Shown piece after piece: positions 64 to 64,000 of a stretch of DNA of 64,000 nt. Position 1 is the stretch's first letter; every line of letters starts with the position of its first letter. The position numbers were made by a program, and so were the translations under genes. This DNA comes from Hydrolagus colliei. Its lineage: Eukaryota. Location of the stretch: NCBI GenBank assembly GCA_035084275.1, contig CM068748.1, positions 7,192,001-7,256,000 on the forward strand, in the 5' to 3' direction. The notes under the pieces are model-generated. The model saw only the letters and a list, made by a program, of their open reading frames with translations. It did not search any database and had not been told where the DNA came from.

Positions 64-14309
<14,246 letters not shown>

Positions 14310-15263: not shown

Positions 15264-18200
15264 TGTATAAAATGAAAATGAAATAGTCCAGTACAAAAAA
15301 AAGTGCCTTGGTCCCCGCTGATACCTGACCTCATTCAAAGGTCATGTAAGAGCTATATCCAGATTTCCTTTCTTCTGTAAACACAAAACAAGTGCACTTC
15401 AGTGAAAGTACAATCCGCAGCTGTGTTTGCACAACTTCCACAAATCCAAAATGATGCATGTGTTATTTAGAGTTATCATTTAGAACGTACCCTCTGACAA
15501 ACAATTCCTTTCATGTTCACCCATTACACAGGTCATTGTAAAGAAATCATTGATTCACTTGCTGTTGATTTGTGAATTATTACTCTCGGGCTGTGAGCCT
15601 GTGCTCCTCAGATCCTCCTGGTGAACTGAGCATTGGATGTGCTCACATGGACGGGAGGTCCCTTAGCTTGTAAATGTCACACAGTTCACAGCACATACGC
15701 TCCTCGTGACATCCCCAAATCAGAATCGAGGTCAGTTCCAGACCCCAACTTATACCATACACACTGACTCACATAATTCTGTTAGTTTTAGAATATAGAT
15801 AGACATCCAGATATACCCAAATAAAATGCTGAGTTGTCAGAGGTTTGTAACATGGAAATGTCATCTTAAAAGTGTGGAAACCTGACTAGTTACAAGATAT
15901 CCTGGTGACTAACATCAGAGGATCATAATTAATATTTCTCATGGGAAATACGTGGGATACCGAGTGAGTGATGAGTTATGTGGGGTTAGCCCAGGCATTC
16001 GTTATTAGTGTTTCACTATATATAAATGGGATCTATGACACAGCCATATCATCTAACTGCGTTTCACAGAATATACTATAAAGTGAATTGTGAATTCACT
16101 TTCTAGTATATTCTATGAAGTGCTTTGAGACATTTCAAAGACATGATCAGGTGCAATATTAAATGCCAGATGTATTATTATACAATTTGTATGTTTTTTA
16201 AATGCCAAGTGCTAAACTGACTTTTTCTTACAGATGTGTTGAATTAGAATTTCTTAAAAATTGGTGTTTTCCCAAATACAGTAGTTTTGCAGCCTGAAGT
16301 TAAAAAAAACTCAGATTATTCTTCTCCATTGGTTTAAAACAAAATACATTGGGACTTTGAAAGATTCTTTCTTCTTCTAGTTTAGACTACTGTTCACAGT
16401 TGATTCAGGTCTGTTTCTTACAGGTTGTTGTAATATGAAATTCAGCAGGACTGTGCCAAAGTGAAGCACATAAACTTCTAGCAAGTGTGACGTCAGCCCT
16501 TCCTCAGTCGCTTGGTGTTTTGCTCTTCTTTTTTTAAAAAAAACTGGAAATTGCACAAACGGCTTCGGTAAAGTAAGAAATCCAGCCACTGGAATGAAGT
16601 GCATCACTAATTAACGTGACACAAAGGAGAATGGGCTGGCAACGGTTCGGTTCCGTACAAGCAGGCTTGTTTCTTTGTGGACTTAAGTTTCAACAGGCAT
16701 GAACGAAACAGCCAGAAATTGGATCCCTGCAAATGCAGGATGAGATCTTGCAGGAGAATGGACAGAATGGCCTCAGCTAGACTGAGCATTGGAGGCTTCC
16801 AGGCGTAGAACCCCAAGAGCGTTTATTTTCTTGTTGTAAATCATCGTGCACTTTCCCTCCCACATGTTCCCCGACAGTCATTTAAAAAAAGGCTTGTAGA
16901 TGTTCAAAGGTTTGCTATTCTTCCTCAACCGGGATCATGTTGGAAGCCAGTGTTAGTTTAATAGTTACAGACTTGTTATCGCATGGTTAGAGTTCATTTT
17001 AGTTGCAGTTTACAGATATTTAAATTTGAAAGAGGGAATGATGATTAGTTTTGGACTGTGTTGGACACAGATCAGATTAATAGGAGTGTTCAGATGAAAG
17101 CAAATCTAATTATTTTACTTCAGTATAAAATCATGCACATTTTTAGATGTAAAAGACACTGACCTAGGTTTTTTATTAAATATTTTTAGTAGATGTCAAT
17201 TATTTATTTAAGCAGAGATTTAACACTATGTGCTGTTACATTTGTATTACCTGTTTGTTTCGATGAGTAACCTTATTTTGATACACATAACAAACATGTC
17301 CTGTAAAAAGAACCGCATTTGTTCTCTTCACACATATGACAATAGTGTATATAGTGTACTTTATATTTTCTTTTTTTTAAATACCGTAATGCAACCGTCT
17401 AACAGGATCAGAACTTCCTAAAAGTAACTCATTATTTTCCGGATATTTTATTACTTTTTTTTAAGAAAAGGTGCTCTGTCAGGAGATTTCGTTTTTAACA
17501 AAAATGTTTTAACGATAAGCAGTTAAATGTCAAAACATTTGAAATAGGGCTCGTTTAGTTGCTGCGTTGGGTGGAGTGGCTCAGCTGAGCTGCATTGTGT
17601 GGTGTTTGCCAATTTTGTGTAAATGCCAAATGACTGAATCTCCTGAAGGTGCCCAAAGCTGCCGCTCACAAGAGTTTGTTCCTTGTTGGGCATTACTGTA
17701 ATTAGAAAACTAATTAACAATTCAGCAGCTCCAACTACGAATGGGGAACTGGAGTGATAATTAAAGGCTTGACAGAGGACATAGGTTGTCAATGTGGAAA
17801 CTATGTCCATGCTAACTCTTCACAACATTATCATTTCCTAATATGTAGCCAAACAGACTAAAACGTTTGGCAACTGCTACTGGACACCAGCAAGTACAGT
17901 ACAGTAGTTGTGGTTTTGATTTTCCTCTTAAAGCAGCATTAGTTCCATTGTGCATTCATCATTTTTAATGCAGTGATGGATCATGCTTTCTCTCCCAAGG
18001 CTTTGTCCCACAGGTTCCGGCTAATTTCTCTATGAAATTGCTGTATTTTACTTTATAATAAGCAGATTTTCTTATAAATAGCAGCCTGAAAGGACAGTAA
18101 GTAGGAAAGCTAGTATAAACATTTCTGTTTAAACTACAGAAATAGCTACTACATACTACAAACAAATCTCTAAGGTAACAAATTAAACTTTGGCACAGTA

Positions 18201-24000: not shown

Positions 24001-27000
24001 ACAGGAAAGTGGACATATTTCTGCAATGACAGAATTTAGATTTTCAGTATAAAAAAATGTCAGGGCTCACAACCCCGATTGTGTTATAGCAAGGTGCATT
24101 TTAATTGGGTTTTCTAAATGAGCACGAGCAATGTTTTTCCATGTCTAAAAATTCAAGAAGGTTCCTTACTTGGCAAGGCCCTCCAGGACAGCAGGAAGAA
24201 GAACTGATTTTTGTGCCTTCTTTAAGATTCTGAAGTATGTCAGAAACACAATGTTTAGGACTTCAGTGTGCTGTTGGCAAAACAAGAGAAACTGTCAATA
24301 AAATGATTATTAAAAAATATATTGTTGGGTCAGAATAGAAGGTTGTATTCGAACATTTCATGAACTAAGCTCTCCACTTTGAGAAATAACTTGGGACCCT
24401 CGCACGACTGATATCAGCAAGATGTCTGGTTCATTGTGAATTGCGCTAAAAGTTTCCGTGCATTGTAAATTGTGAGCTCCTGAGATATAGACATGCTGAT
24501 GCCAGTAGTCAAGGAATTTTGAAGTTATCCAAGTTCATAATACAATGGTGTAAGTCACAATTTAAGGAAATTTTACAGTATGTCACAATTTCAAGCAGAG
24601 ATAGATTATTGGTACTCCACCCACTCCAATTAGCCGAGATAAAGGAGTGAAACCCAGAAACCACGTACCAGTTTTAGTTTTTTTTCTTTACTTTCTGAAG
24701 CTTCTGTTTCTAGAAGTTCTTTCTCCAGTTTCTCCTCTGCTTTTTTCCACTGAAAATTAAGAGATAATTTAAAACAAAACAATTGACATAATTTGCTCCA
24801 AATAAATATAATCTGTAGGTATCCAGCATTTATCTGGAGTGTTGACAACTCGTTAATACCTTTCTCTGTTTCCTGGAGAGACTTTGGTGTTTTTCCTTCA
24901 TTGTCATGAATCTCTTTTTAGGGGCAATGTCTTCTGTATCTTTCTTAACCTCCACATCCCGAATTCGCAGGGAAAGAAAGGTGTTCAGCACCTGCAATGA
25001 GAAAAAAACACAATAAATTCATAGAATCTTACGACACAAAAGTAGGCCATTCGACCCATCGAGTCTGCCCAGCTCTTTGAAAAGAGCAATTCAATCCCAC
25101 TCCCCAGCTCTCTCCCCATAACAGTACAAACCCATCCCCCACAAATAAATGTCTACCTCTCTTTTAAAAGTTATTATCAAATCAGCCTCCACCACCTTTT
25201 CAGGCAATGAATTCCAGATTCGAACAACTCACTGAGTAAAAACATTTCTCACCTCCCCTCTTTTAGAAACTATTTTAAATATGTGACCTTGAGTCACTGA
25301 TACACCCACCAGTCGAAACAGTTAATTTAACTTTTTAAAAAAACATTCACACAGCTCTCTAGTGGTGAATAGAGGCAAGGGAGGGGAATGAAAGATTTGA
25401 AAGGTTGTTTGATGCTGGGAGTCATACATGAACCAGATTGAGTGACTTACAAGTAAAATATTATTATAATAATCATGCTTACATCTGATATAGCGCTTTT
25501 CACATCTTCTAGACATCTCAAAGGGTTTCACAAATATGCTGTAAAGTGAATTTACTGTATATGGAATCCCTCAAGAAAAAAAATTATTCATTTTAATCCA
25601 TGATGGTTCGTGGGATATTGCTGTGCGCAATTGGCTGACACATTTCACCCATGTATATAGTCAATCCACTTTACAGTGTATTCTGTGAAGTGCTTTGAGA
25701 CGTCTAGAAGACGTGAAAAGCGCTATATCAAATACAAGGACTAGTACTGTAATTATTTGCACGGTAAACTTCCAATTTGTTTTCAAAATTAGTTTGTAAT
25801 TAAGAGATAGCAATTGGGAAGAACAAAATATACCTCAGATTTGATTTCGTAATTCCTGCTTTTAACAAGGCCAGAAATGACTTTGATCATTGTCAGTGAA
25901 GACTCGCCAACTTTGTCCTGCTTCAAGAGCTTTTTAACTGCCTCGCAACACATTTCTGAAATCTGAAAACAAACCGTTAAACATCACAGCAAAAAAAAGG
26001 CGTATAAAATCCAAACAACCTAATTACAGTAAAAGCCTGTTTATCCGTGACCCGATCAACCATAACTTCCATATAATCGGCACCTCAAAAAAGGTCTGCA
26101 TTCGATTCATCAGAATTTATCCGGCACTCGGTATTTTTTTTGGTGTTTTCAACTGAATCTCTGGCATGCGCATTGGCCAGGTCCCAAGGGTGCCGGATAA
26201 ACGGGCTTTTACTGTACTCAACATGCATCCTGTCTCAATGTGTAACGATACAAGCTGCCTTTCTGTAGCAGTAAATTATCCTGGTTGTTGACATGGACCT
26301 TCAGGTATGATAACTGGACTATTAGGCCGACCTCTATAACATCAATGATTGAAATTAGTAGATGGGAGAACATTAGAGGATAGTCAGCTCTTTACAATCA
26401 GAATGACAGTAAGGAGCAGGATATATTTTGTAAGCAGACAATAAATGCATTGGGTGTTGTGTTAAGTGTAGTAGAACTACAATGTAAATCACAATGTAAA
26501 ATCACTTGCAGAATCTGTGCATTCACTATCAGTATAGAACCAACTGTACAATACTAAATATTTGGTACAGGGGAAAATAATTTAAAATTGGTTAAAAGGG
26601 GCACACAGAGTATTGGATTGTATCCAGCAAAATAAATTCCAAAAGGAAAGCGGGTTTCAAATGTAAAAAAACAGAAGAAAATACGCAAATATGCACTCAG
26701 AATTCTCTAAAAAAGGATTAAATTGATCCCTTCCAATCAAAAATTCTCTCTAGATACACTGCAATTTAATTCTGAGGTTCATGTACCAAGTTATTAATTA
26801 AAAATGAGCTCTCGATTGAGCAGCCGTAAAGTTAAATCAAGAGTAAAGCCAGAACAGTTGGTGAATGGCAGAATGCTAGATTGAATTATTATCTTAAACT
26901 TGCTTCCAAATTCTTGTTCGTCAAATATAGTATAAACTTTTTTAAAAAGTTTTAACTTTTTGTCCAGCAACTTATAACATCACACAATTAGTATAATCAG

Positions 27001-33000: not shown

Positions 33001-34988
33001 TGGAGCAGTACGAATTACAATTCTCACAACTTACTCATTCTAGCCTAGCCTAGCCAGATCTCTGGCTAAGACAAGATGGAATGGTCAGAAGTATTCACTT
33101 TGAAACATCTTCCAAATGTAGAAAGAAATAAACAAAGTATTAAAGTCCTAGAAATATAAAACCGTTTAAAACCATTTAACCCACAATATAGGCCTTACAA
33201 ATGCCCAATTGTAAAATGACGTACGATATATCGCCTTAAGACAAAAAGCCACACAGAACTACAGCATTTCACTTACCTGGCCTTTTCCTTTTGGGCTGAT
33301 CCATTGGAGCAGGTACTTTAGCTGTAACATCTCGGACAGCTTGTCGAAGTTGTTTCTGATCTTTCTTGAACTTCTTGGCAACACTTTGCTGCTTATACTG
33401 TCTATTCTTTAATTTATTTGCAAGCTTTATATTGCTGGTTTTCAACAGTTTGTGAAAACTTGGAATACGTTTTGTATTTTTTTTCTGAAATAGAATACAT
33501 GAAATTGTTGGGCTAAAAAACTGAATGCGATTACAGGTACTGTATATAAAATTTAAAATTAGATGATGAAAGTCTTCTCCTTTCACAATACTCAATCTAC
33601 TGCCTTTCCAGTACAGCTTCAGCCATTTTTTTTTAAAAAGAGTCAATTTTGTTGGCCTCAACTACCATTCTTATACAATGAGAGTCAAACTGCACACTGA
33701 GGTTGCGTTGCCTTTTTAAAAATATGTTCAATCAACTGGATTATAATAATCCTTGCAATTGATATAGAGCTTTTCACATCTTATCAACGTATCAAAGCGC
33801 TTCCAGAATATACACCATAACAGGTGGCTGTATTGCATAATATTTTCAGAGATGTTGCCCTTAGGATGAAACTTTAAAACTGATGAGTCTATGCAGGTTA
33901 ACGTTAAAGATCATAACACAAGCTGAAAGGAGGAGGGAGTTTCTCCTGATAGCCTTGCCAACACTTCTCAAGGCACCTCCAATAATATAACACATTCCCC
34001 TAAGACTTACTGCAGTCATTGGTCTGTCAGCCAAGAAATCACAATTCAAAATCCCAACATGTGGCTTGAATCCACAACCTCTGATTCAAAGGCAATTGAG
34101 CCAAACAGATAAAACAATTAACTGGAATATTGATGAAGATGATGATAATAATAATCGATAAAATGTTTATAACCCCTTTCACGTCAGAAGATTGTCCGCA
34201 AGCACTTGACTGAATATAGTGTGGAGTCCAGTGACTGTGTATTGCGTGGGTTAATACAAAGCAATAAACCAGAAACAGTAACAGAAGTGAATCTGAATAT
34301 CCCCCGTCACACCGTGAAATAATTTAAGAGTGCAGACACTGACCGCTCAGACTTCTCTGGTATCAAAGGCTAACACACACATTCAAATGGTATTGTAACT
34401 GACGCAATACACGGGACTGTGATGTGAATGTTCACCATCAGACACCTCAGTGATTAGAACACTCGCCAGACAAGTGTGAGACCTGTGTTTCGAATCCAGG
34501 CAGGTCAGGGCAACAAAACCTTGGGCAAGATTCCTTACTCCTCACGCCTAATAACAACAATCCTCCTTCCCCCCCCACCAAAAAAAAACCCTATAATAAA
34601 TTGGTCATTTCAATCCACGACTGTTTGTGGGGACACTACTGTGCGCAATGGGCTGCCGTGTTCCGCCCACAAAAATATAGTCGATTCACTTTACAGTACA
34701 TTCTGTGAAGCGCTTTGAGACGTCTAGAAGATGTGAAACGCGCTATATCAAATGCAAGTATTATTATTTTTATTATTATCAGATGATTGCCTCCACCCTC
34801 CCCTCCCCAATCCTTTCCCTCCCCGGGGTCTCAGGTCTCCCCAAACCGCCAGAGTGTAACTGCCCTGTCCAGGCTTCAGATTGACTGAAGGCCTCGGAGC
34901 CCCCGTTTCAACGGCTCCGCTGTACAGAACAGCTCCAGAGTAAAGTGCCCCGAGCCCGACCCTGAGCGGCTTGACTCACCGGCCTCAT
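20873..34988 (-). CDS. NOC3L: Nucleolar complex protein 3 homolog (NOC3L), complete, 21 coding exons, 798 aa
   Basis: Exons in transcript order: 34988-34980, 33484-33277, 32552-32432, 31505-31348, 30322-30260, 29542-29418, 28832-28671, 28222-28129, 27270-27095, 25962-25834, 24991-24860, 24749-24669, 24270-24170, 23704-23632, 23489-23426, 23267-23196, 22918-22737, 22318-22190, 21794-21697, 21228-21141, 21004-20873. Total 2397 nt, all GT-AG and in phase. Motifs: [67 protein letters not shown]. Confidence 0.97.
21141..21228 (-). CDS. NOC3L: NOC3L exon 20
   Basis: [20 protein letters not shown]...; AAG|gtaagg. Confidence 0.92.
21697..21794 (-). CDS. NOC3L: NOC3L exon 19
   Basis: [32 protein letters not shown]. 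Confidence 0.93.
22190..22318 (-). CDS. NOC3L: NOC3L exon 18
   Basis: [17 protein letters not shown]...[15 protein letters not shown]. Confidence 0.95.
22737..22918 (-). CDS. NOC3L: NOC3L exon 17
   Basis: [26 protein letters not shown]...NRVLMT. Confidence 0.93.
23196..23267 (-). CDS. NOC3L: NOC3L exon 16
   Basis: [24 protein letters not shown]. Confidence 0.93.
23426..23489 (-). CDS. NOC3L: NOC3L exon 15
   Basis: [21 protein letters not shown]. Confidence 0.92.
23632..23704 (-). CDS. NOC3L: NOC3L exon 14
   Basis: [24 protein letters not shown]. Confidence 0.93.
24170..24270 (-). CDS. NOC3L: NOC3L exon 13
   Basis: [20 protein letters not shown]...LPAVLEGLA. Confidence 0.93.
24669..24749 (-). 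CDS. NOC3L: NOC3L exon 12
   Basis: [27 protein letters not shown]. Confidence 0.93.
24860..24991 (-). CDS. NOC3L: NOC3L exon 11
   Basis: [22 protein letters not shown]...LSRKQRK. Confidence 0.93.
25018..25322 (-). mobile_element. CR1 LINE 3' fragment
   Basis: CATAGAAT..AGTAGGCCATTCGACCCATCGAGTCTG..GCCTCCACCACCTTTTCAGGCAATGAATTCCAGATT..ACTCACTGAGTAAAA is the typical reverse-strand CR1 3' end (FTQ.V...WNSLP.KVVEA). Confidence 0.75.
25464..25745. mobile_element. Two SINE 3' fragments in inverted orientation
   Basis: - strand copy about 25464-25560 abuts a + strand copy about 25565-25745. Confidence 0.75.
25834..25962 (-). CDS. NOC3L: NOC3L exon 10
   Basis: [19 protein letters not shown]...RNYEIKSE. 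Confidence 0.93.
26027..26214. mobile_element. MITE of the same Tigger-like family
   Basis: ta|CAGTAAAAGCCTGTTTATCC...GGATAAACGGGCTTTTACTG|ta. Confidence 0.88.
27095..27270 (-). CDS. NOC3L: NOC3L exon 9
   Basis: [10 protein letters not shown]...[24 protein letters not shown]. Confidence 0.95.
28129..28222 (-). CDS. NOC3L: NOC3L exon 8
   Basis: [31 protein letters not shown]. Confidence 0.93.
28484..28497 (+). promoter_or_regulatory. CTCF-like core motif CCACTAGATGGCAG in a NOC3L intron
   Basis: Close match to the CCACYAGRKGGCAG consensus; motif only, binding unknown. Confidence 0.4.
28671..28832 (-). CDS. NOC3L: NOC3L exon 7
   Basis: [11 protein letters not shown]...[23 protein letters not shown]. 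Confidence 0.95.
29418..29542 (-). CDS. NOC3L: NOC3L exon 6
   Basis: [14 protein letters not shown]...[16 protein letters not shown]. Confidence 0.9.
30260..30322 (-). CDS. NOC3L: NOC3L exon 5
   Basis: acidic [20 protein letters not shown]; phase 1-1. Confidence 0.85.
30710..30919. mobile_element. MITE of the same Tigger-like family
   Basis: AGTAAAAGCCTGTTTATC...GATAAACAGGCTTTTACTG|ta. Confidence 0.85.
31348..31505 (-). CDS. NOC3L: NOC3L exon 4
   Basis: EPIHAKK...[22 protein letters not shown]. Confidence 0.93.
32432..32552 (-). CDS. NOC3L: NOC3L exon 3
   Basis: [21 protein letters not shown]...FLTRDLSS. Confidence 0.9.
33277..33484 (-). CDS. NOC3L: NOC3L exon 2
   Basis: [17 protein letters not shown]...PKRKRP; G|gtaagt. 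Confidence 0.93.
34445..34778 (+). mobile_element. tRNA-derived SINE, near full length
   Basis: CTCAGTGATTAGAACACTCGCC...TTCGAATCC head; tail AGCGCTTTGAGACGTCTAGAAGATGTGAAACGCGCTATATCAAATGCAAG(TAT)n. Confidence 0.85.
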
Positions 34989-35816: not shown

Positions 35817-36415
35817 CACATTTAGATGCTTCATTTGAAAGGTACAGTCCAGCCAGGTCTAATGTGGAATCAAGTCAACGTACTGAATAAATAAAATGAG
35901 TCAGTCTGCCATTCAATTCTATCTGGAATTGAAACCCTACCAGGAGATAGTTCCCCAATCAAATTGGCAGCAGGAGGGTAATCCAAGATAGGAACTGACC
36001 AACAAGGCACTTTGAACCATTTGATCTCATCCTTCCAGACAATATAAATACTGGATCAAGTGGTTTCTTAAATGAGCCCAACAACATTGTCTCGATCACT
36101 CTGCCTGCTAACTCAGTCAGCTGTTTATTTCCATCAGTCTAAAAACTTCAATTTGACTTCAACAAAGGTAAAGCCCACTTTGACAAACAATCTTATATTT
36201 ATATTGCATCTTTCACATGGCGAGGATGTTCCTAGATGCTTGACAGAACATATTACATTTAAAATTTACTGGGTAGTCTAATGAGCTATTTGTTTAGTTC
36301 TTGGTTGTACGATTCGGTCAGAGCATAATTTTAGTTCATCTTATACCACCATCTACAGTACTTCGTTTTTTTTTGCCTTGTGTCCATCTGCTGTTTGCCA
36401 TCTTAAGGACATCAT

Positions 36416-36695
36416 TAATAATAATAATCCTTGCATTTGATATACCGCATTTCACGACTTCTAGACGCCTCAAAGAGCTTCACAGAATATACTGTATATC
36501 TGTGGGTGAAATGCGGCAGCCAATTGCGCACAGCAGTGTCCCATAAACAGTCATGGATTGAAATAACCAATTTTATTATCGTGTTTTTTTGGGCAGATTA
36601 TTAGGCGTGTAGGGTAAGGAAACTTGCCCAAGGTTACGCCCTGACCTGCCTGTATTCAAACACGTGTCTCACACTTGTAAGGCAAGTGCTCCAAT
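36416..36695 (-). mobile_element. tRNA-derived SINE, slightly 5'-truncated
   Basis: Same family body and tail. Confidence 0.85.
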
Positions 36696-37068
36696 CTTGA
36701 CCTTGAATAGGACAACATTTACCTCCTTAACTAGAAAGTATTGCAAAAGACCAAGTTTCAGCATCTTGAGACATCCTCCCGACGTGAAAGGCGCTATACA
36801 AATGTAATTTTGTTGTTGGTTATAGTAAAAGCAGATACAATAGATATCCAGAATTTCTCAGGGTTCACGTCAGCAACTAACAGTATTCAGTTTACACTTT
36901 GCTGTAAATCATAAACCACACCAGCAAAAAACCATCTTAAACACCCAACAATGTGACCTCAAGACACAAGCCCCACATCTAGGGCAATACCAAAGACATG
37001 CATCTTTCAACATCTATTATGTTGCGCAATACAGAAAAGCACACATTTGAAGGCACTCAGCTTCATTC

Positions 37069-41900: not shown

Positions 41901-44900
41901 AAATTGACATTCAAAAAGGTTGAAATCTTTTTCAGACAGCAAAAACATTTGCTGATATGTATTGGAGCTCTCAATTTTGGTTATGGCACCTAATATACAA
42001 AATAGCAACTCAGCAGATACTAAATATAGGGGACAATTTGTTAATTACATATAAAAAATTTGAAGATACCGAATACTTAAAAGTATTCAACATTTAATTT
42101 AACAACACAGATTTGCTCTCCAAAATTTGATCTGGCTCTCCAAAATTTTAATTACTGACAAATGGAGAAATTTCTCAGGAATACGTTTAACTGAAAACAA
42201 ATTAAATCTAGTTCATTCTGTTTTTATTAAACCCGTAGACTAATCTAGAATTCCAAATAGAAATGTAATACTTGATCAATTGGTGAAAATTGATAACTCA
42301 AATTGCAATTGTGATATAGTTCAGTGAATTACAGACAGATATACCAGATTTTGCAAGAAATATTTGGCATAAAAACCACAAATACCTACATATCCAACAT
42401 CAGGCCTGTAGCACGTGTAAGCCCCAAGCACATTATGCAATAGATCGTGATATGGTCCACCCTTTAAACAAACATAATTTAAATACACATCATTTTCTTA
42501 AGTTATATTTGTGAAAACAGTTTAACCTCTAAAAACATGAGGCCAAATTAAAGCAGTTAAATTGGTTAAATAAACAATAGTTTGCAAAGGCGATTGCCCA
42601 TTTGTTACACCCACTTTGTTTCTAAGGTCATTCTTTTTTAAAAAATTCAAATCAATGCAAATAATCAGGGCGCCAAGGTTGAAAAATAGGATTAAAGTCA
42701 TTCACATTTGACAAACTAGTACTTTTAATTTTATTGTAGGACTAAGCCATATATGTACAGAAGCAAAAAATTACAAACCTTTTGGAAGATGAAGAGTGAT
42801 GGGAATGTACGGGAGATATCCAGCTTTATCAATTCAAGACTGGCCTCTCGGTCAGCCCCTGATGCTCCAGAGTCTAAAAAGTCAACGAGGTAAGTCATTA
42901 CACTAAGTGGGACATGGAACAAAATGCAGACTGTGCTGAAACCAACAAACGAATGTTCTGCTGAAAGTTATATTCAAATGTTAGCTGGTTGACCTACTGT
43001 GGATTTCTGTATTTTTTAAATGTCATAGTAGCATCTGTGTGACTATACTATTCCAGACATTTTAATGTTTCAACAATATAGTTGTGCACATAATTTCTCT
43101 AAAGTCTAATGTAAATGTTCACCTCAACTAAATATTAATTGGATTACAAAGAATATATTTCTGGAAATAAAACTTTCAGCATTTTATTGAGACAATGTAA
43201 ATATCTTGAAATGCCTAGATACCAACTCAGCACATTTTACATGAAGTAATACCTGCCCAGTTAAGAATGCAACCTGATCTTGAATTGTGTGTATATGTAT
43301 AAAAATCACACTTGAGCCCCCCATATACACATATATGGGGGGGCTCAAGTGTGATTTTTCCATCAGTATATTTTACAAAGACCATGTTTAAATTTCCAGT
43401 TAAATCCCACCTGTTTTTTCCTGTAACAATTTTAGGTTCAAAAGAGGGCATCCCAAAACATTTAGAATAAGGGCATCTTATCATTTAGATTCCAAATATA
43501 CCTTTAATTGCTTTTAGACTGTAAAAGAGCAAAAAGTTAATTATCTTGGAGAATGAGGCAAAACGTTGGAGAGCAAAACAGTTGAGGATATTTTTGGATA
43601 ATACTGCATGAACTGACATAATTAAGAATTAATTTAGTTTGGTTTGATTTAATCTATTTTTGAATGTTGAAAATAGTATTTGCAGTGAATATGGTTCTAA
43701 ATTAATCATGGATGTTGATGTTGTTGAAATATAATTTAAGGAGGAGGCAAGTTGAGAACAGTGCTCCTCTATTTTGCATTGATGTAGAGAACAAATATTT
43801 TAAATTGGTTTTGAAAATTGAAAAATCTGAGCTACCAAAACATATACATACATATTGAAAGCAACTTTCCAGCATAGAACAGCTTACTTATTTGAATTAC
43901 AGTAAAACATTTACCAAGATATTAAACACCTTGTGTCAGCAAAGGTAATGTAATAGCATAGTGCATTCAATCTAGCAATGCAAAAAGTAGCGGCCTGGTA
44001 GGATACAGGATTAGTGCTCAATTTCTTCCTTAGAAAATATTTAGCAGTTTGATAGTACAATTATGGATTTTATTATCGATATCAAAATGGTCAAATCAAC
44101 TTTTAGAAAGAACTTTTTGGAATAGTCTAAGAAACCTCTATCAGAAGCTCAATTAAAAAAAAGAAAATCATTAACCAAATACCTTGAGTTATATCAAGGA
44201 AAACAAAGACAAGTTCTGTTTGAATCATTGCCTAACTCCAAAAGTCAACCGAAATAGTGAAAGTGGCTGAAGATAGGAGGCTTCAGCATTAGAGATGATG
44301 ATGTTTTAAAGAAACACATGAGTGGGATTAGATTAACATTAAACAAGTGATCGCTGCAATCAAGGAGAAGAAACAATCAAGGAGAATAAAATTAAAGAAA
44401 TTGTTCGAGTTTAAACAGCAGAACTTTCACTGAATGGTGATCTAGGAGGACAGGAACAAGATTAAAATCAATGCCAAAAAAAAGTTGCTGGGGAAACTCA
44501 ACAGGTCAAACACCATCCATGGAGAAAGGAAAAGGAGTCAACGTTTCGGGTCTACAACCCTTTTAGGACTTCGTCAGGACTGGGAAAGAAACAAGCCCCA
44601 ATCCTGACGAAGGGTTGTAGACCCGAAACATTGACTCCTTTTCCTTTCTTCATGGATGCTGTTTGACCTACTGAGTTTCCCCAGCAACGTTTGTTTTTGT
44701 TTCAGATTCTCAGCATCTGTAGTATTTTGTGTTTTGTTTAAAATCAATGCTGTCTGACTGGCTGGCAACAGAGTGCATGGAGACAACTTACATCTGACCT
44801 CAGTTGTAGTGTTTGTAATGCGTCAATTAATCTTTAATGCAAAAATGCTACTTGAATCAACAGATTAAAAGAGACTGCTCAGTCATGAAATTAATATATC

Positions 44901-47900
44901 TGGACGACTTGAATGAGTGAAATAAAAGTGCAATTTGTTAACGCCTGTGTGAGGTGCTTCAAGGGAAGGCCTACCTTCAGTTTCATTCTCTGATCCAGTC
45001 TCACTGAAGCTTTTCCATCGCTCTTTAGCTCTCGACAGAAAGATTTCATAAAGCTCTATGAATGAACAAAACAGCAATGAAGTAATTTAAAAAGAAACTT
45101 CACCTCCAACAATCTCAGTCTATAACTGACATCCAATCACCATACCATATCGTTTATTTATTAACCATTCAATTTATTTAGGAACTGCTTTTTAATATAA
45201 ATAAAGTCTCCTTTAAATTAACCTAAATCAAGCAACTGAATTGTACAATATAAATACCATGAGTAATGTTCAGCTCATTGCCGATGGCTAAGATCCACAC
45301 TTTCCCGCGAACACTGGGAGGAACGCCCTGCCACCAGAGTTCACGCACCTTTCGTGTATTTCGACTGAAGGTTTGAGAAAATAAAAATTAAGTATTAAGT
45401 ATAGAAATCATCAATTCTCTCAATTATGTTGTAGATACTTCAAGTAGTGATCACTATGAATAGAATATACTTACATGGTTTCCCAGTTGGGAAGAATATC
45501 CACATTCCAAATAATCATAGCGTGAGCAATATTTTCTTCTTGCCTAAATCGTTCCTTCATAATTTTTTTCCTTCTCTGTGCCTCTTTCATCTCTACCAAA
45601 AGAATTCCCAAAGTTACAGGTCTGCAAACCAAATGCGTGAATATAATATCCCTATCACATTGTTTTCCTCAACTTGTGTCTCTTTTTCCAAGAAGGTCAG
45701 TAGTCTGTTCCAATAGGTAAAGTTCTGGAAATTTACATCTAATCTGTTGTTCCCCATGGAAGGTAAAAAAAAAATCAACCTGGCTTCTCGCTCCTTAATA
45801 TGATTCGGATTGGGAATCAAAGCCACATTCTCCTGCTCTAGGTTGCCGTGTACTGATGTCCTAAATGGTACTCAAATTATTCAAGAAAATGAAGTACATA
45901 ACATTGTCCTACACAAATTCACTTAATTAGTAAAATTTCACATGTAGTTTAAAAGTGATCCCTTTCTGGATTGCTTTATTTATTGAGTCCTTAGTCTCTG
46001 CATTGATCAAGCACTTTTAAGACTTCCACCCGATTAGTAAGGAGTCAAGTAAATTGTATTTTATTTCCTCCATGGCCAGCATCAATACGTTTTTTTCCAT
46101 CCACAATACTTTGCACTCCGGGTGTAGCACTGCAATGCTTATCATGGTTAGTAATAATCAACAGATTGATGCTATTGTGTGCCCAACAATAGATGCCCCA
46201 ATATTGATTATATAATTTGAATTGCAAAGTGGACATTTCAAGAGTAAATATTTGCTGATTATGAATCTTAAGGTCTAAGTCCCCCAAATACGAAACCTAG
46301 TTATACAAGATTTTGACATATCAGAGTTTGGGTGCCCATTTTCTGTACTAAAACAAGAAGTTAATTGCAATAAAACGTTATAATACTTAGAAATTCACAG
46401 TCACAATAGTTTAGAAACAACACCTCTTTTCTTTGCCTCTGCCACCATCTCATCATATTCCTGTCGATGCCTTTGAGCCTCCTCTGCAGACTTTGCAGGG
46501 AGATGTCTGCAAAAAAAAACTTCCCCATAAATACAACAATAAAGTGCTGAAAAGATAGTAACTCTAGATTGTTCAAAGTAATTATCCCCTTTCTCTCTTG
46601 CATGCAATATAAAAACACCATACCTTCTGATTTTTAGCAATGATAAGAAACATCCTCAATATCCCAAATCATCTCCATGCTAGCAGTGCAGTAGTTTTGT
46701 TGGGAGCAAATTATATGATCGTCAAAACTAAAGGCTATGGAAGCAAAATTTTCTTTTAAAAAGAACATGCGTGTACAAGCAATTTTATACTCCACAGTCT
46801 AAACACTGCTTTTAGGAAGATCATTTATTGCATTCATAAACTGAGTTGGGCAGTTATGGAACCAATTAAACATTTAAAAAAAAACTTTTCCCTTTGTCAT
46901 ATTTTTCACAGAAGTAAACAGCAACTGAATCATGTTTCTTTTTAGATTCCATTAGTTTAAATAGAACATTAGCCATCAAATATTTAAGGGGGACAATATA
47001 ATGTGCTGCTGTAGGCCTTGTAAAACAGCTGGCTACACCTGAACTAACACACACGGAATTGCATGAAGACCCAAATTGGCTGTATTTTGCAAAGTTAACT
47101 TACATCTTGTAAACTATCAAAACGAAATACAGCAGCTGAAGAGCAACAAATTTGCTGATCGGCAAATCAAAACGGGAATAAGAATGAAATAACAAATCTC
47201 CCACATTTGGCGCAAAGCAATTTTGTTTTTAACTCCTTTTTCTGACCTGCAAGAGCCTGATATGACCAGGAGAGGGCAATTGGGAGACCAAATTTTCGAC
47301 AATCCACGTCACCGCTAACCCAAAAGCAGAAATCCAGGCAGCAAGAAACAAGGCATTATATTGTCTCTCCTCTTCCCCCCCCATCTCTGATGAACATTTC
47401 ACTACTGTATTATGGATTGTATCAAATATCCCAAGGCCAAGTAAATACAATTTGCTTCATGTTCCCTTAAAATTTGAACCAATATGATCTTTTGGTTGGG
47501 GAAATCAGTACCTTTTATGTTGAATTTAACTTTTTACCTCTCCCCCATTTTTTCTTCTTTGCTCTTTTGCCCTAAAGACAGTAACTCATCTTGGGTAAGG
47601 GCCAGCAGAGATCAGGAAGGCGACCTACATTTTCCCTTCTCTAATCCAGTGAACCAAGGCCAACTGTAGCATTACCACATAACTATTCCAGCTGAGCCAC
47701 TTAAAAGTTTCACAGAAGCATTTCATTTCACTTTTTCGTTTATATAGTAATTGTTTAATTTCAAAAACATTTGATGAGCATTTTCGATATTATTTCATAT
47801 AAAATATTTGTACTCAAGATGAAAATAGATTGTTAATAAATAATAATACTAGTCTCTTTCTAGTTTAAATCCCAATGTCACTAATGTTTCAGATTTGCCA

Positions 47901-53900: not shown

Positions 53901-56900
53901 TTTGTCAAAAAAAAATCAAAGAATATTGTCCTACATAAAAGGATCAGGTTGGCGTTGGCTCACATGATTTGGGTATCAAAATAAAGACTAATGACTAATG
54001 TGAAACAATTGGTCAGATGAAAATACTGCCAGCTGTAAATTGGGCCTAACAAGCTCATGGTGCAACGATAGATCAAGTCCGATATTGGTGTACATGATAT
54101 TACACGAACGGGCCAAAGCAGAACCTTACTGCAAAAGGCATTAAGAGAATGTTGCACAATAGTCCCTGCCCATATCAGTTTACCTACTTGTCGCATGGAA
54201 ACTATTCATTATAACTTGCCCTTTACTTTGAAGATTCAACTTAAAATTCCACGTGTTTAGTATAGTAACCTGGATTTTCTGGTTGTATCCAGCATGAACA
54301 TTGCTAATCCTAATCAGAACAAATTGATATGCATGATAACCGGTTCAGTTACTTGAAAAATGGTTTGCAAAGAACTGAGCCAGTTTGTTTCAAAATTTGG
54401 ATAGAAGTTGTCCTAGATAGTATACAGGAATGCATGTAAACTACTTATTACATACATACTGTACATTCCTTAGCATTCATTGGTACATCTGAGTCCCGTA
54501 GATCAGTGAGTGGTTAGAGCACTCGCCTTACAAGTGAGAAATCTGCGTTTTATACCCAGCAGGGCAAAACTGGACAAGATTCCTTACTCCACATGCCTGA
54601 TAATCCCTCAAGAAAAAATTAAATAGTAATATGGTCATTCAATCCACAATTGTCTGTGGGACACTGCTGTGCGCAGTTGGCTGGCACATTTCACCATCAA
54701 AATATATAGTCAATTTACTTTTCAGTATATTCTGTGAAGTGCTTTGAGACGTAGCAAAGACGTGTTAAGGCGCTATATCAGAATGCAATATTGGTAAATG
54801 TTTGTTTGGTAAATATTTGCACTTGGTTGCATTTCTTATATATTTGCAAGGATTTAATTCCTGTATTGCTGCTAGATTTGGTTAAAGGATAATTGCAATA
54901 TATCAACTTTCATTATTTGTAACTTGGTCCAATTCGCTGCCACATTCCATCGACAAATATACAATTCACTTTACAGTACATTCTGTGAAGTACTTTGAGA
55001 TATCTAGAAGACGTGAAAAGCACTTTGTCAAATACAATTATTATTACATATGGTTCACGATCAAACAGTTTTGATAATTTACATTTCCTGTGCAGAAATT
55101 GATACGAAAATATTTATTCTTGCTATAGCTTAAACTATCTTAAAAGTGATTATTCGATTATATATTATTTTGCTGAACACAAATAACCCTCTTCAATACT
55201 GGAGTGCTTTCTCTGTCTGCAGAACAGTGTTCATGGGCCAGTATGCAATTATTGGAGTATTATTTGGGGTTGAATACTTTAATTACGAAAATTAAATACT
55301 GCCACCAGAAGCAATCTACCTACTCTTTAGGTGGAGTTAATCATCCAGTTACCAATTATTGTACTACAGTATTCACTTACCCTGTGCCCATTTATGCTTA
55401 CATTCCATTGGTTAAATCATTCAGGAGCTAAAAATGGTTGGGGGCAAATGGGTTTAGGAAATTATCTAAGCTAACCACTAAAACGTTAAATCCAATCATT
55501 AACATACAGAGAAGTTCACCACATTCAGTGATCAGTGTATAAAACAATAGATTTCAGAACCAAATATTAACCACACATGTTTACTCAGTAGTGTTGGTAT
55601 AGTAATTATTCTACACCCAAGAGCCTTATTGTCACAGCAGAGAATGGGTACTTAAATAAGAGTTTTCATTAGAGGGAGATCCTGAGGTTACAAATTTCCA
55701 GAAGGAATAATTCTGATCCAACTCAGTTGCAAAATACAATTATTTATTATCCTCACGGACAGAGAAATAATGAACCATTGATGAGTTATCAATTTAATTT
55801 TCAAAAATAAGTAAAATTACTTTTATTTAAACATTTTTTGTTTCCAAACATTTTCTGAAAAGTTGCTAGCAAGCTTTGATTCACAAAGTTTCTTGTTCAT
55901 TTGCAAGGTCAGTGGTTTCTGCACCACTGAACGGATTACAGTCTTGAAGGGGAAAACAAAGGTTCAGTTTACACCGCAAGTATGAGATCACTATTTTGAC
56001 TCCACTCTAACAAATATGCAGAGCAAATTCTTGTGGTTCTCAAGTTTAAAACCAATAAAATGTCTGAACTCATGACTATAAATTATAACAGTCTGAATCC
56101 CACCGAGTCAATGAGTCAATCACTTGACTGATCACAGTTCAATATATAAATCCAGGTATGTGTACGCACAAGATACATTCCCAGTCTATTCCCAATAGAT
56201 TTATTCAATTACATGCTTGAGTTGAAAAAATTATAAATAAAATTACCAGTTCAAAGCGATTATTTAGTTCCGTATGAGCAATTTTTCCAAAGACCACATC
56301 TGGCTGCATGAAGTGAGCTTAATAATGCATTAACATGTTACATAATATCTGATTATCTACAACAACCTGCATTTATACAGCACCATTCCTTTAGTGTAAT
56401 GTCTCAGAGTGCTTTATTTGCACAAGAGATAGGGTTAAGGGTAGGAGGGGTGGGGAGCTGGCCAGAGGCACATTCAAAGATGTAAGATTTGGAATTGCAT
56501 TTAATTACAAAACGTGGAGTGAGACAGAGCTGTAGGGAGAGGGTGTTCCAGATGTTCATTTAAACTGTAGTCATAAAATAAATTCTAATCATCAAAACTG
56601 ACAGGAGTTCAGAAACAGATATTTAATGTCCGGTTTAAGTTACAGCTGTAAAACTGATGTTTGTAGCAATTGCCTGGCAAAGTATACAAAAAAATAAAAT
56701 TCAGTATGTCATTTAAATTTCTATCAGAAGAAAGAGGAAGGAAATCCAAATGATCAAATATAACCAAATCTTATAGCGTTTAGTTGCACTGCTGGCTGAT
56801 GACAAACAGCAGCTGCAAAATTTGGTTGCCAACTGTACTTACCTTTGACCCCTATTATATCCTCGGGGGGCCAGAAAGACACTTGTAAGCGACAGCAAAG

Positions 56901-59116: not shown

Positions 59117-60787
59117 TATTCTTATTCCTCATGTTGTCTGATTCCTGATATGTGGAAAGATCAGTACTAAATAAGGTTAAGGATCTAGGATTTTGTTCGG
59201 TAATAAACATAAAGCCTTTCCAGTCAGAAGACTAGGAGTCCCAAAACATCTTCCAAAAAAAATCTTGTCTTACAGTACAATGATATTTTGAAAACTGCGA
59301 GTTCAGATGAATGAATTCATAGTTTGCAATGAAGAAAATATGGAAAGAAAATAAGCTGTTTAGAATAGCAAACAAGCAGCCAAATAAAGCAGCTGAATCA
59401 CAATGCTGAACATAACCATCTTTCTACAAATTCTAATCTATTTGTATATGAACTACTCAAGAGAAAGCCACTGTTTTCCTCCATCAAGAAAGCTGCTTCT
59501 AGCTAAGTAGCTATAAAGCAGATTATAGTAATTAAATGTGACACAAGAAATTTATCACAGTTGCTGTAAGCTCTGGTTGGGCAAGGATCCGCAGAGCCTC
59601 AATAGCGAGTTGTAACATTTAGGAAGAACGATAGAATAGTTGTAGGTCCTTTCTCTCCAGTGGTTAATTATATATTTTAATAACATGAATTACATGTACT
59701 GTATATGTTAATTCCATGAGGTATGGTGCAGTGTTAACATAGATCTGTAATTGTGTTCACCAAAAGTCCCGAGAGTCTACTCTAATGCATATCGAATGCT
59801 AAACCATACCACAAACATAAACTATACTTCGAAAATTATTTCTATAAACCACAGCAAAATGAATCAAGTTAAAAATAAAACAACTAGCAGTTGTTTGGGA
59901 GCAACATCCTCCAGCACACACCTCTAAAGAAAAACTGATGAATCAAAAAAAAGCTAAACTATTAAAAGGCAGGAAAAATCTAATATAAAGTGCAAAATCA
60001 AACTCACGATTTAGATCAATTTTGGCAATTCTGCCAGCACAGTATGAACAAACGGACTATTACAATTTCCTCATTTTCATCTGATGTACGAAAGCCAATC
60101 TTCACCCTCCCCCACCCACCCCCTCCAACCCTACCACCACTCTGTTCCGTCGAAAGCCATTAAAGCTGCAGTCAACTCAAATTAATCTATCTCAACAGTT
60201 ATATTTATCCATGATCACTGATATGATTTTTAGCATGACAATTTCACTTGATATTCTTACCTAATTTATGCTGATCTGGAAAGCTTTCAAGACTCCTTTG
60301 TTCTCCAAAAACAAACTTTTACTTCTCTCTTTCGTAGCATAATTTTTCACATTTCATTCATGGTTATAGCATTTATATAGTACACTAAAGAATAAATGAG
60401 ATTGAGTTTAAAAGGTACCAAGACTGAACAATTTAGACATTTTGCTTTGTTAAACCAATATTACTATAAGACAAACTCAAGTATGAATGTAGATGGACCC
60501 TATTATGATTTACGGTGCAAGTCTACTTATAGGGTGTAGGGTAGGCCTGTTGTATACTTCCTGTTTCTGCCATTTCCCGTTTCAGGTGCTTCCTGATTCT
60601 GGCCAGATTCCTCCACACAATGTGTGCACATGCAACATACAAGACATGTCGTCAGCAGAAAACTGATAACCTATAATCAATGATAGGTGGTCTTTTTTAG
60701 TACAAGCCCTAATGTGGGGACTCAAACCACTGTAACAACCAGGGCAATCTGTATTAAACACCCGACTGAAAAGTCAAAGCTGATAAT

Positions 60788-61077
60788 GGAGTCCTGTAGC
60801 TCAGTGGTTAGAGAACCTGCTTTACTGGATTCAATTCCAGGCAGGACAAAACCCTGGGCAAATTTCCTTACACCACATGCCTGATAATAATCCCTCAAAA
60901 AACAATAATAATTTAGTCATTTCAATCCACAACTGTTTCGGGGGCACTGCTGTGCACAATTGGTTGCTGCGTTTCACCAAAAAATATGCAGTTAATGCAC
61001 TTTACAGTATATTCTGTGAAGCTCTTTGAAATGTCTAGAAGACGTGAAAAGCACCATATCAAACTCAAGGATTGTTA
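60788..61077 (+). mobile_element. tRNA-derived SINE, near full length
   Basis: GGAGTCCTGTAGCTCAGTGGTTAGA head; family tail. Confidence 0.85.
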
Positions 61078-64000
61078 CTTTTATCTGATAAAGTACTAAA
61101 TTTGCTATTCTTCAATTACATCACCAACACTAAGCTAAAATTAGCATCTTTATCTTAAATACCACACTTCCCACGACCAAATATGCCACACATCACATGC
61201 AACAGCTGCTATACCAAAATTCTGACTTCTAACAATAATATTCAGACACTTAAAAGTACAGTTGCTCCAGTTTTGTGCTGTGCTCAGCTATAAAAGATTG
61301 ATCATGAATGCTTGAGCAATAACATTTCTTAAAGAGTTTCACTTTGAATCAGTAAGCTCCTGATAACTCTTCAATCCACAGGAAAAGGGTTCAACCAACT
61401 AGTTATCCAGAGTGACAAGTCAGATGTCGGTCCTCCCAGTCCACAAGGGGCGTTGTAACTGGTACGGGCACTCAGCAGAGGTTGGGCACCATTGCACTGA
61501 TGCATCGCAAAGGCTTCTGGTCTAATAGAATGGAGTGGGGGGCAGGTTGGGGCCCTCCAATAGATCAGAAGCCTCTGCGATGTAAGCAAGTTTGTGAGTC
61601 CAACCACCATTGAGAGCCTTTATAATTCACAGGATAGGGAGGGATATCTCTGTGATGCAAAATGGCAACTTATAGGATGAGTTATCTGAAGTACTTAGAA
61701 GAATTTCTGGAACGCTATTGGTTACGTTAGTAAAGCATAATCCCTTATTAATATTTTGCATTGGAAGCAGACAATTTGTTATTCAAATTCAACATCATAT
61801 GTTTCACATTTTAAAATAATACAGATCTAAAACTTCAAAGTCTTATTCTTGGGTTAAAGCAATTCACTATAGCAAGGTAGAGCAAGGTACATCCTACATC
61901 TCTTTATGTAATTATTATTAATAATAATAATCCTTGGATTTGATATAGTGCTTTACCCATCTTCAAGACATCTCAAAGCGCTTTACAGAACATACTGTAA
62001 AGTGAATTGACTGCATATATGTGGGTGAAATGTACATTCCCAGGACAGAAGAAAGTCATTGTATATTCGCCAGCTTTCTGTAAGGCCTATCAGATGAGTC
62101 CCTCGCCCTCATCTTTTCCCAATACACATTTCCTCATTCTGTACTTTTACTTTACATTGCAGATTTGACCAATTCCCCTTTTATAAATACTATTATGGAT
62201 TATGTTCCCGGCTTCTTTGCTCCTATGACTGGAAAAGGTTACCAAATACATTTTAAATGTAAACTGCTGCTGTTCAAAGTGGCAGATCTCAACCAGCAAT
62301 GAGTACCTTTAAGTGTTCTTTCAATTCAACACTCTTTAAAATTAAAATAACTTTAAAAATGTGGCATTAATGCTCTAATGCACTGCTTGTACTTCAATGA
62401 TGTCTTTCCACTCAAGAGGAATAAATAGGTTCGAAGTCAGCTCAGCAAATAAAAAAAATTGACCCTTGTAATGTAATATAAAATTAATGTTAATGCATCA
62501 ATGATCCAAAATAGAGCTTGGTTATTTGTGCAATTTGGAATTTATAGTATTGGCAGCTTTTTGTTCCAAGTTATTTCACAAAGTAATTAAATTTGTTAAA
62601 AACGCTGAAACTATAAAAGTAATTTGTTCCATAACTGTAGGAATCATGTGATGTTCAATCGTTAATGGGCCTTTTGTTCTGATAAAGTGGTTTGTAATGT
62701 TCGCAAATAAAGAAAATCACATTACCCATCAATAAAACCAACCAGATTAAAAATCTCTTCCAGTCGTGTACATTCCCATGCTGCAAAACCAAATTTGGAT
62801 ATTATTAAATTACTCAAATAACCAGAGCACATGGAATAATGAAATCCATGGAGCATCATTTGAGTTATTCCCTACTTAACACCATAAAATATTGTTAGTA
62901 GGGGATTGCTTCCTTTGCAATTATTATTTTGTAAATTTTAGACCCTACATCAGGCTTGACATTATGTTTTGTTAGATATTTCTTTCCCATAGTTGATCTG
63001 ACAATCTTAGAGTGGAAAGTGACATAATCCGAGCTCCTCTTGGACAAAAATCAACTTTTAAATAACATGAAGTTTTGTTTTATGGCCTTCAGATTGATTA
63101 ATAAAAGTTATTGCTTTCAGTATAATATACTTAATGCAACCTGGAGACAAGCATATATTATCTAAGAGACAACGTGATTATCTACCCCATTAATTGTTCA
63201 AAGCTTAACTTCATTCTTTGAATATCTATACATCAAATCGTCAAATCAATATGAAATTTTTACAGTTCTGAAACCGTTTCAAAAAGATTAATACGATTAG
63301 ATTAACACTCACAAAGATAGGATATCAATCCATATGGGGACTGATGTGAAACACACGGAGGACTGTTCCAGCAATCATTTTTGCCTTAGAAAATGTCAAC
63401 GATCAAACCCATATGCGCTCTGAGATGTTACCCTGTGTGGAGGGCACTATATAAAGGCAAACTATTATAAACACAAAATTCTAAGAAACCTATACAATTA
63501 TTTAACTAAAAAAAATGCTGTACCTCATTCAGTATTTATAAACTGCAGTGGCTGTTTGTGGGACATGGAGCGAATGACCAGATAGCCAATCTTCACAGTA
63601 GATATTTGAAGGCTATGATGTTATAAGACACTATTTCAAATGCAAGGATTATTATTTTAACAAAATACTTCAGGAACTACTTTGACCCAAGTTATTTTTG
63701 TAAATAATGACATTCACTCCACATTTCTTAACCAACTACTTTGAGGGAAATACAATTTTATTAAGAAATGAACTCAAGAAATGAACTTCTTGTATTCAGA
63801 GCAACATCTGCTGTCCATTCTACTTTGGTTTGATCCACAAAAATCTCAACCCCCCCATAAAGATTTATCTTACAGATACAGTAGAAGCAACCACTGTTGC
63901 TATAATTCAACAACAACAAAATTACACTTAAGACAGTCACTGTGTCAGATATTCAGATGTAAAATTTAAGATTTAATGTTCTCTGATAACTATCAAACAC

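Follow-up and report, generated by a model that had tools for sequence, protein, structure and literature searches.

The 263-bp insert at positions 44475-44737 of the window (the whole 64,000-nt stretch of DNA analysed) very probably consists of two 5′-truncated pLTR copies of an abundant Penelope-like element (PLE) encoding reverse transcriptase (RT) and a GIY-YIG endonuclease, placed head to head and likely inserted in one event. It is not a self-standing mobile unit or a separate retrozyme. The arm of the insert is the pLTR of an ~3.2-kb RT plus GIY-YIG element in the same genome, which bears out the short Penelope insertion that a preliminary description of this DNA had offered as one of two readings.

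Structure of the insert and its setting in TBC1D12

The insert lies between exact 13-bp direct repeats (44462-44474 and 44738-44750). Insert, repeat and inverted arms of ~90 bp had all been reported in the preliminary description, and their coordinates were confirmed here; what it had missed is an asymmetry of the arms, the right one ending in a tail of ~41 nt (44697-44737) that the left one lacks. The inverted matches at 44476-44562/44610-44696 (87 nt, 92% identity) and 44569-44584/44597-44612 (16 nt, 94% identity) are parts of a single arm pair, interrupted by a 9-nt insertion in the left arm; apart from this insertion, the arms differ by 8 substitutions per 100 aligned positions. The features are:

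44462..44474, no strand: target-site duplication (TSD), left copy, 13 bp (100% direct-repeat match; family-level TSD test)
44475..44584, minus strand: short arm, a 5′-truncated pLTR without tail, from ~141 to ~42 nt from the element's tail end (repeat comparison)
44536..44581, minus strand: minimal hammerhead motif of the short arm, sense in TBC1D12 pre-mRNA (motif alignment)
44561..44569, minus strand: 9-nt insertion in the short arm (its likeness to the 11-nt junction-duplication class is inferred)
44585..44588, no strand: 4-nt filler at the head-to-head arm junction (sequence compared with family upstream sequence)
44589..44737, plus strand: long arm, a 5′-truncated pLTR of ~149 nt that ends at the main family 3′ end (alignment to L112)
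44600..44636, plus strand: minimal hammerhead motif of the long arm (motif alignment)
44697..44737, plus strand: one-sided PLE tail, ~41 nt, between two start sites (tail as defined in the available text of PMC8557442 and PMC11167929)
44738..44750, no strand: TSD, right copy (exact repeat of the left copy)
44976..45055, minus strand: TBC1D12 exon of the host, upstream of the insert (identified by its reading frame and splice dinucleotides; name from the downstream exon)

The long arm has 91% identity over 146 nt to the 3′ pLTR of the near-full-length copy L112. The insertion had been called complete, which holds for its two ends and TSD, both intact, while the product itself is heavily 5′-truncated. 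It sits in an intron of minus-strand TBC1D12, ~240 nt past a donor, as proposed earlier: the donor GT is at 44975-44974, 238 nt from the insert, and the exon downstream in the host gene, which gave the gene its name, has 94-96% identity to chondrichthyan TBC1D12 (by protein similarity the host is a cartilaginous fish). Elsewhere in the window no PLE ORF or second copy of the arm was found, only self and inverted matches. One contig from a second sample of the organism bridges the left insert junction by 34 letters, and among the 15 joints listed (there are 137 further) none skips the insert, as at an empty site. In two other runs, contigs stop after 23 and 16 letters of the element, fewer than the 31 letters required for bridging, and presence of the insertion in other species is only hinted at.

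The window contains other repeats. In the same TBC1D12 intron is a 59-bp near-perfect palindrome (43301-43359; 90% self-match), unrelated to the PLE arm and with no obvious TSD, while in a 57-bp imperfect palindrome (16063-16119) two pieces of a dispersed repeat that is abundant in the window meet head to head. Copies of an older SINE-like repeat (100-320 bp, 70-85% identity) are numerous and lie in both orientations (5492-5674, 11869-12173, 25460-25757, 34449-34778, 36411-36696, 54491-55049, 60787-61084 and others). A 189-bp direct duplication (2913-3101 and 4169-4357; 99% identity, 1.26 kb apart) is found on the side of the window holding a Ras-association-domain exon (13252-13590), presumably of PLCE1, judging by synteny.

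Parent element and hammerhead motifs

Followed upstream in other copies, the arm leads to endonuclease and RT remnants. A linked RT and GIY-YIG frame, for which the preliminary description had recommended a search, was found with RT followed by endonuclease in 16 of the 18 RT loci examined (picked from 150 hits). The arm lies downstream of RT, in the same sense, in 15/18 (~280 bp after the endonuclease in 14 of those), and an inverted arm lies upstream of RT in 5/18. L112 (~3.2 kb, near full length) has a 10-bp TSD and comprises a partial direct 5′ pLTR, ORF, RT, endonuclease and 3′ pLTR; in both L112 and L122 a direct-sense arm is present upstream as well as downstream of the ORF. No intact ORF was found among the 18 loci read, every copy read being broken, and Pfam matches to GIY-YIG (E 2e-4) and RVT_1 (E 3e-4) both fall below curated cut-offs. 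A PDB sequence search with the RT piece gave unrelated weak matches only. Most of the 120 homologs listed (of 245) have RT-type domains and a length of 600-1000 aa, many being single ORFs of ~900 aa, and the closest among those listed is from bamboo shark (67%); the RT-linker-endonuclease region has 47% identity to an 889-aa single-ORF homolog. In sum of organisation, the family has the features of an EN+ PLE: a single ORF with RT and C-terminal GIY-YIG (pieced together from broken copies), pLTRs in partial tandem or inverted at both ORF ends, a one-sided tail of the 30-40-bp type (~41 nt in the window copy) and a TSD of variable length. The linker between RT and endonuclease carries C-x4-C-x2-C in L109 and homolog P0004. 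According to the available text of PMC8557442, a CX2-5CxxC linker marks Neptune and is shared with Nematis, and by this motif the parent would be a Neptune-type PLE. Beside PLE fragments at two other loci (L113:1-1005 and L123:7042-8001) are long open frames of a LINE-type RT C-terminus, which suggests that these LINE copies are younger.

The family motif consists of a 4-bp stem I, the core, an extra A, a 4-5-bp stem II, a 4-nt palindrome replacing stem III and a GUU site; failure of the consensus to form stems I and III around an NUH site and to cleave had been named in advance as grounds for rejection, and the family motif does form stems I-III with such a site. Core, stems I and II, NUH site and palindromic 15.2-16.2 are those of minimal PLE hammerheads. 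As in the minimal hammerheads of PMC4209133, so far as its text was available, stem I is short, an extra nucleotide lies between A9 and G10.1, a G10.1-C11.1 pair is present and palindromic 15.2-16.2 occurs without loop 3; the same paper describes dual motifs of metazoan PLEs, 100-700 bp apart on opposite strands, derived from truncated PLEs. Unlike the schistosome motifs (stem II of 7-8 bp), those of the insert family have a stem II of 4-5 bp and both window motifs are damaged in sequence. Across arms, stem I pairs are kept in 88-96% and stem II pairs in 91-99%, and two subfamily changes from U-G to C-G preserve pairing; no two-sided covariation was seen across arms. The motif is intact in 14 of the 50 arms spanning it.

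In the long arm of the window copy, core and stem II are intact, as first described, with an extra A after A9 and a predicted cut after 44632. Stem I has a mismatch at 44601, and the dimer palindrome is lost because G16.2 has changed to A at 44630. The short-arm core had been described as decayed and accompanied by an extra copy; the latter corresponds to 9 extra nt between core and stem II, and the core proved intact, together with stem I and the ACGU palindrome. Neither arm thus keeps all core, stem and palindrome positions. The minus-strand motif is the only sense one in the pre-mRNA and is transcribed after its complement; in the modelled pre-mRNA hairpin, 36 of its 46 positions are paired at ~1.0 probability. 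Given the damage to both motifs and the trapping of the pre-mRNA-sense one within the hairpin, both are predicted to be inactive and no cleavage is expected, in silico support for the earlier suggestion that this copy may be inactive. For the one other copy that was folded, L127, whose stem I is altered, the hammerhead structure comes to -5.4 kcal/mol vs -8.2 kcal/mol for the minimum-energy structure. An Rfam scan of the insert found no hammerhead family, and its miRNA matches (MIR6136, 52 bits vs gathering 99) were rejected as reflecting the hairpin shape.

The family in the genome and the origin of the head-to-head layout

A DNA search of the 1.0-Gb genome returned 3,573 candidate homologs of the insert, of which 40 were scored, and exact patterns matched at least 1,703 times (35-nt tail) and at least 2,260 times (22-nt hammerhead). 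The short-arm/long-arm layout is common to all 30 best loci, and the genome search for copies with the same ends and TSDs, called for in the preliminary description, showed an exact flanking repeat of 7-16 nt at 27 of these 30. A tail-anchored sample was drawn from the first 90 of the 1,703 tail matches, all on contig C1, and comprised 87 copies after three segmental duplicates were dropped. A flanking repeat of ≥10 nt with ≤1 mismatch was present in 44/87 copies vs 1.3% of shuffled flank pairs, so the TSD is real at family level too; its length varies from about 9 to 16 bp. An adjacent inverted arm was present in 40/87 copies and absent from 47/87. Stubs of ≤142 nt, which make up 75 of the 87 main arms, predominate among the sampled products.

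Several copies depart from this pattern. L002 (G000:C21:13336018-13336316) has two full arms, both with tail and sharing rare variants, and its inversion runs ~22 nt into the flank with no TSD found; a later rearrangement or a conversion may have produced it. The four copies L141-L144 (G000:C1:8.59-8.66 Mb), which belong to a diverged PLE subfamily, have near-identical flanks and represent a local segmental duplication. L153 (-883..0 relative to the tail end), L196 and L208 have three arms or direct partial tandems (pLTR-spacer-pLTR) and are the nearest to retrozyme-like tandem units in the sample.

In 34/40 pairs the outer end of the inverted arm is 29-48 nt from the tail end, and the outer end of the short arm in the window agrees with this second start site of the family. 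Paired arms agree at 163/173 subfamily sites vs 65% when shuffled (0/5000 shuffles reach the observed value), a measure blind to whether the template was one RNA or two from a single source locus. Gene conversion between arms was rejected as the cause of this agreement, because private variants are mostly unshared (6 shared, 142 unshared), so the paired arms appear co-templated rather than converted; a single RNA template for both arms is rather likely. In 4/40 pairs the sense arm consists of nothing but the tail and directly adjoins an inverted arm that it does not overlap, an arrangement explained most simply by two primers on one RNA. The central junction differs among the 29 independent places aligned (read by eye), often with short templated fillers. 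Because of this variation from copy to copy, the palindrome was probably built at each insertion and not copied as a unit.

These observations suggest a model of integration in which the element protein would nick both target strands ~13 nt apart, and reverse transcription would be primed on each strand from two internal start sites, one being the tail end and the other, probably located on the same RNA, ~36-42 nt further in. Synthesis of both cDNAs would stop near the hammerhead 5′ edge, where either the RNA begins or RT stalls, and end joining that adds small templated fillers would then connect the two cDNA ends. In this scheme the hammerheads would be passengers, the antisense arm, made first, being predicted to trap the sense motif in read-across RNA. 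For priming on both strands the model draws by analogy on the anole element: in vitro, both strands are cut and extended by its protein, and its tail is delimited by two RT starts (PMC11167929, available text).

The unit of inverted 5′-truncated pLTR, one-sided 30-40-bp tail and TSD has already been published for EN+ PLEs, e.g. Adineta vaga Pen2a (PMC3846280; PMC8557442, Fig. 2 legend). So far as those sources could be consulted, Pen2a shares with the insert family the head-to-head inverted pLTR, the one-sided tail and frequent 5′ truncation, with TSDs of 8-10 bp as against about 9-16 bp; unlike in Pen2a, both insert arms are too short for any ORF. Compared with the account of the anole Poseidon element PAc in the available text of PMC11167929, the hammerhead similarly lies ~100-135 nt upstream of two internal RT starts bounding the tail, targets are AT-rich and there is no sign of ribozyme cleavage making template ends. 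Unlike PAc, the insert family has a CX4CxxC linker of Neptune/Nematis type, and the first ATG in L112 comes after the tail, whereas in PAc it is inside the hammerhead (putative start codon).

The same element could also have given rise to the inversion if one cDNA folded back or if an antisense template supported self-priming. Such an origin has been proposed for rotifer PLEs (PMC3846280, in the part available), either route would also yield arms agreeing at subfamily sites, and the inversion in L002/L003 reaches into its flank; yet a central fold-back does not by itself predict the fixed outer end of the inverted arm, which directly abuts the TSD, nor does it sit well with the four pairs without any overlap or with junctions that hold fillers rather than perfect palindromes, and we regard this origin as quite improbable. 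Two primers and head-to-head joining remain the preferred explanation. Still less probable, and largely refuted, is the second reading of the preliminary description, a retrozyme-like non-autonomous unit in which RNA of the whole palindrome would undergo self-cleavage or circularisation before the PLE machinery inserted it anew. The hammerheads, a size within the 170-400 nt range and the long TSD fit the general description of retrozymes (PMC7229834), which have been proposed to derive from pLTRs (bioRxiv 10.64898/2026.07.22.740005), and like non-LTR retrozymes the insert is non-coding, small and pLTR-related with a type I hammerhead. In the available text of both papers, non-LTR retrozymes have head-to-tail repeats, canonical or dimer-active motifs and circular RNAs, and by definition each head-to-tail unit has a motif; the insert, in contrast, is an inverted pair with minimal PLE motifs on opposite strands, no head-to-tail repeats were found, and the variable junctions and 5′ ends imply that there is no fixed monomer. 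The absence of a 5′-end peak at the cut site and the predicted pairing of most of the sense motif in the hairpin likewise count against a retrozyme.

There is next to no likelihood that the insert is a MITE or foldback derivative of a DNA transposon with long terminal inverted repeats: it is short, non-coding and of high copy number with long inverted repeats, but its ends are asymmetric (one-sided tail), the TSD is not of fixed length, more than half of the sampled copies have no adjacent inverted arm, and linkage of the arm to RT and GIY-YIG remnants refutes this origin unless the same ends turn up at a transposase locus. Equally hard to credit is a hairpin kept for a role in TBC1D12 RNA, as an editing substrate, in splicing control or as a small-RNA source. 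The hairpin in TBC1D12 pre-mRNA that had been described earlier was recovered as a very stable predicted fold (44462-44750: -162 kcal/mol, z -19.9; 0/200 shuffles as good) close to the donor, and the insertion is also present in the second sample of the organism; any function, however, is putative, the arms have drifted apart like those of other copies (most pairs 83-98% identity), and the miRNA matches are far below gathering scores. The head-to-head pair of truncated pLTRs is thus retained as the account of the insert.

Stops at the hammerhead edge and the junction repeat

Arm ends were taken as BLAST ends against one copy (L112), so that an end may be moved to 134 by a mismatch at 135 nt. 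Of the 70 arms that extend to 133 nt or beyond, counted from the tail end, 52 terminate at 133-142 nt, the 5′ edge of stem I, most often at 138 (15 arms); one counted stop (L141) belongs to a diverged subfamily that continues upstream. The stop rate is 0.074 per nt at 133-142 nt vs 0.008 just upstream. The edge is not absolute, since the window arms reach ~141 and ~149 nt and 18/127 arms pass 142 nt. Loose contig ends pile up at the hammerhead edge in 4/4 other runs (92, 99, 34 and 20 contigs), and smaller piles at the edge continue into native sequence. Ribozyme-made 5′ ends were rejected: there is no stop peak at the ribozyme cut site (105 nt; 1/127 arms), and the stop rate at 97-105 nt equals that at 106-123 nt. 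A spliced template, suggested by resemblance of the edge to a 3′ splice site, was rejected by eye, there being no common upstream exon and copies abutting the TSD or inverted arm.

As to the cause of the stops, an RNA start at the edge has about an even chance, an RT barrier at this position is a serious possibility, and some further cause is rather improbable. An RNA start is possible because the edge reads like an initiator. A capped RNA end is not supported because truncated arms show no excess of an extra G before the edge (3/20; 2/11 in the unbiased set; background 0.22).

In 21 copies, ~1% of arms, 11 nt of the edge are repeated exactly, always at insertion junctions; a mid-arm control gave 0. 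The 9-nt insertion at 44561-44569 is likely a decayed 11-nt junction duplication. Host end joining with templated insertion explains the 11-nt repeat as well as RT realignment does. One conceivable though unlikely interpretation is that the hammerhead 5′ edge acts as a template boundary, where the telomerase-related RT would halt on both cDNAs, primed on a single RNA, and would sometimes shift to a 2-nt match and copy the final 11 nt a second time; if so, the ribozyme fold would set the end of copying instead of cutting the template, and the extra core in the window insert would be a fossil of re-copying, like telomerase repeat addition. No description of the 5′ pile-up or junction repeat was found in the openly accessible article text searched. 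The available text of the PAc paper (PMC11167929) does not mention such a pile-up and a term search of its text supplements gave no match, while its Fig. S2 may already show a 5′ boundary.

The layout and motif of the insert are already known, and it is an ordinary copy of an abundant family; as one of thousands of dead stubs, the single locus matters little. The family as a whole provides a natural data set on how PLEs finish integration, and its copies suggest that priming takes place at two sites of one RNA and that copying stops preferentially at the hammerhead 5′ edge, with no use of the ribozyme cut for making template ends.
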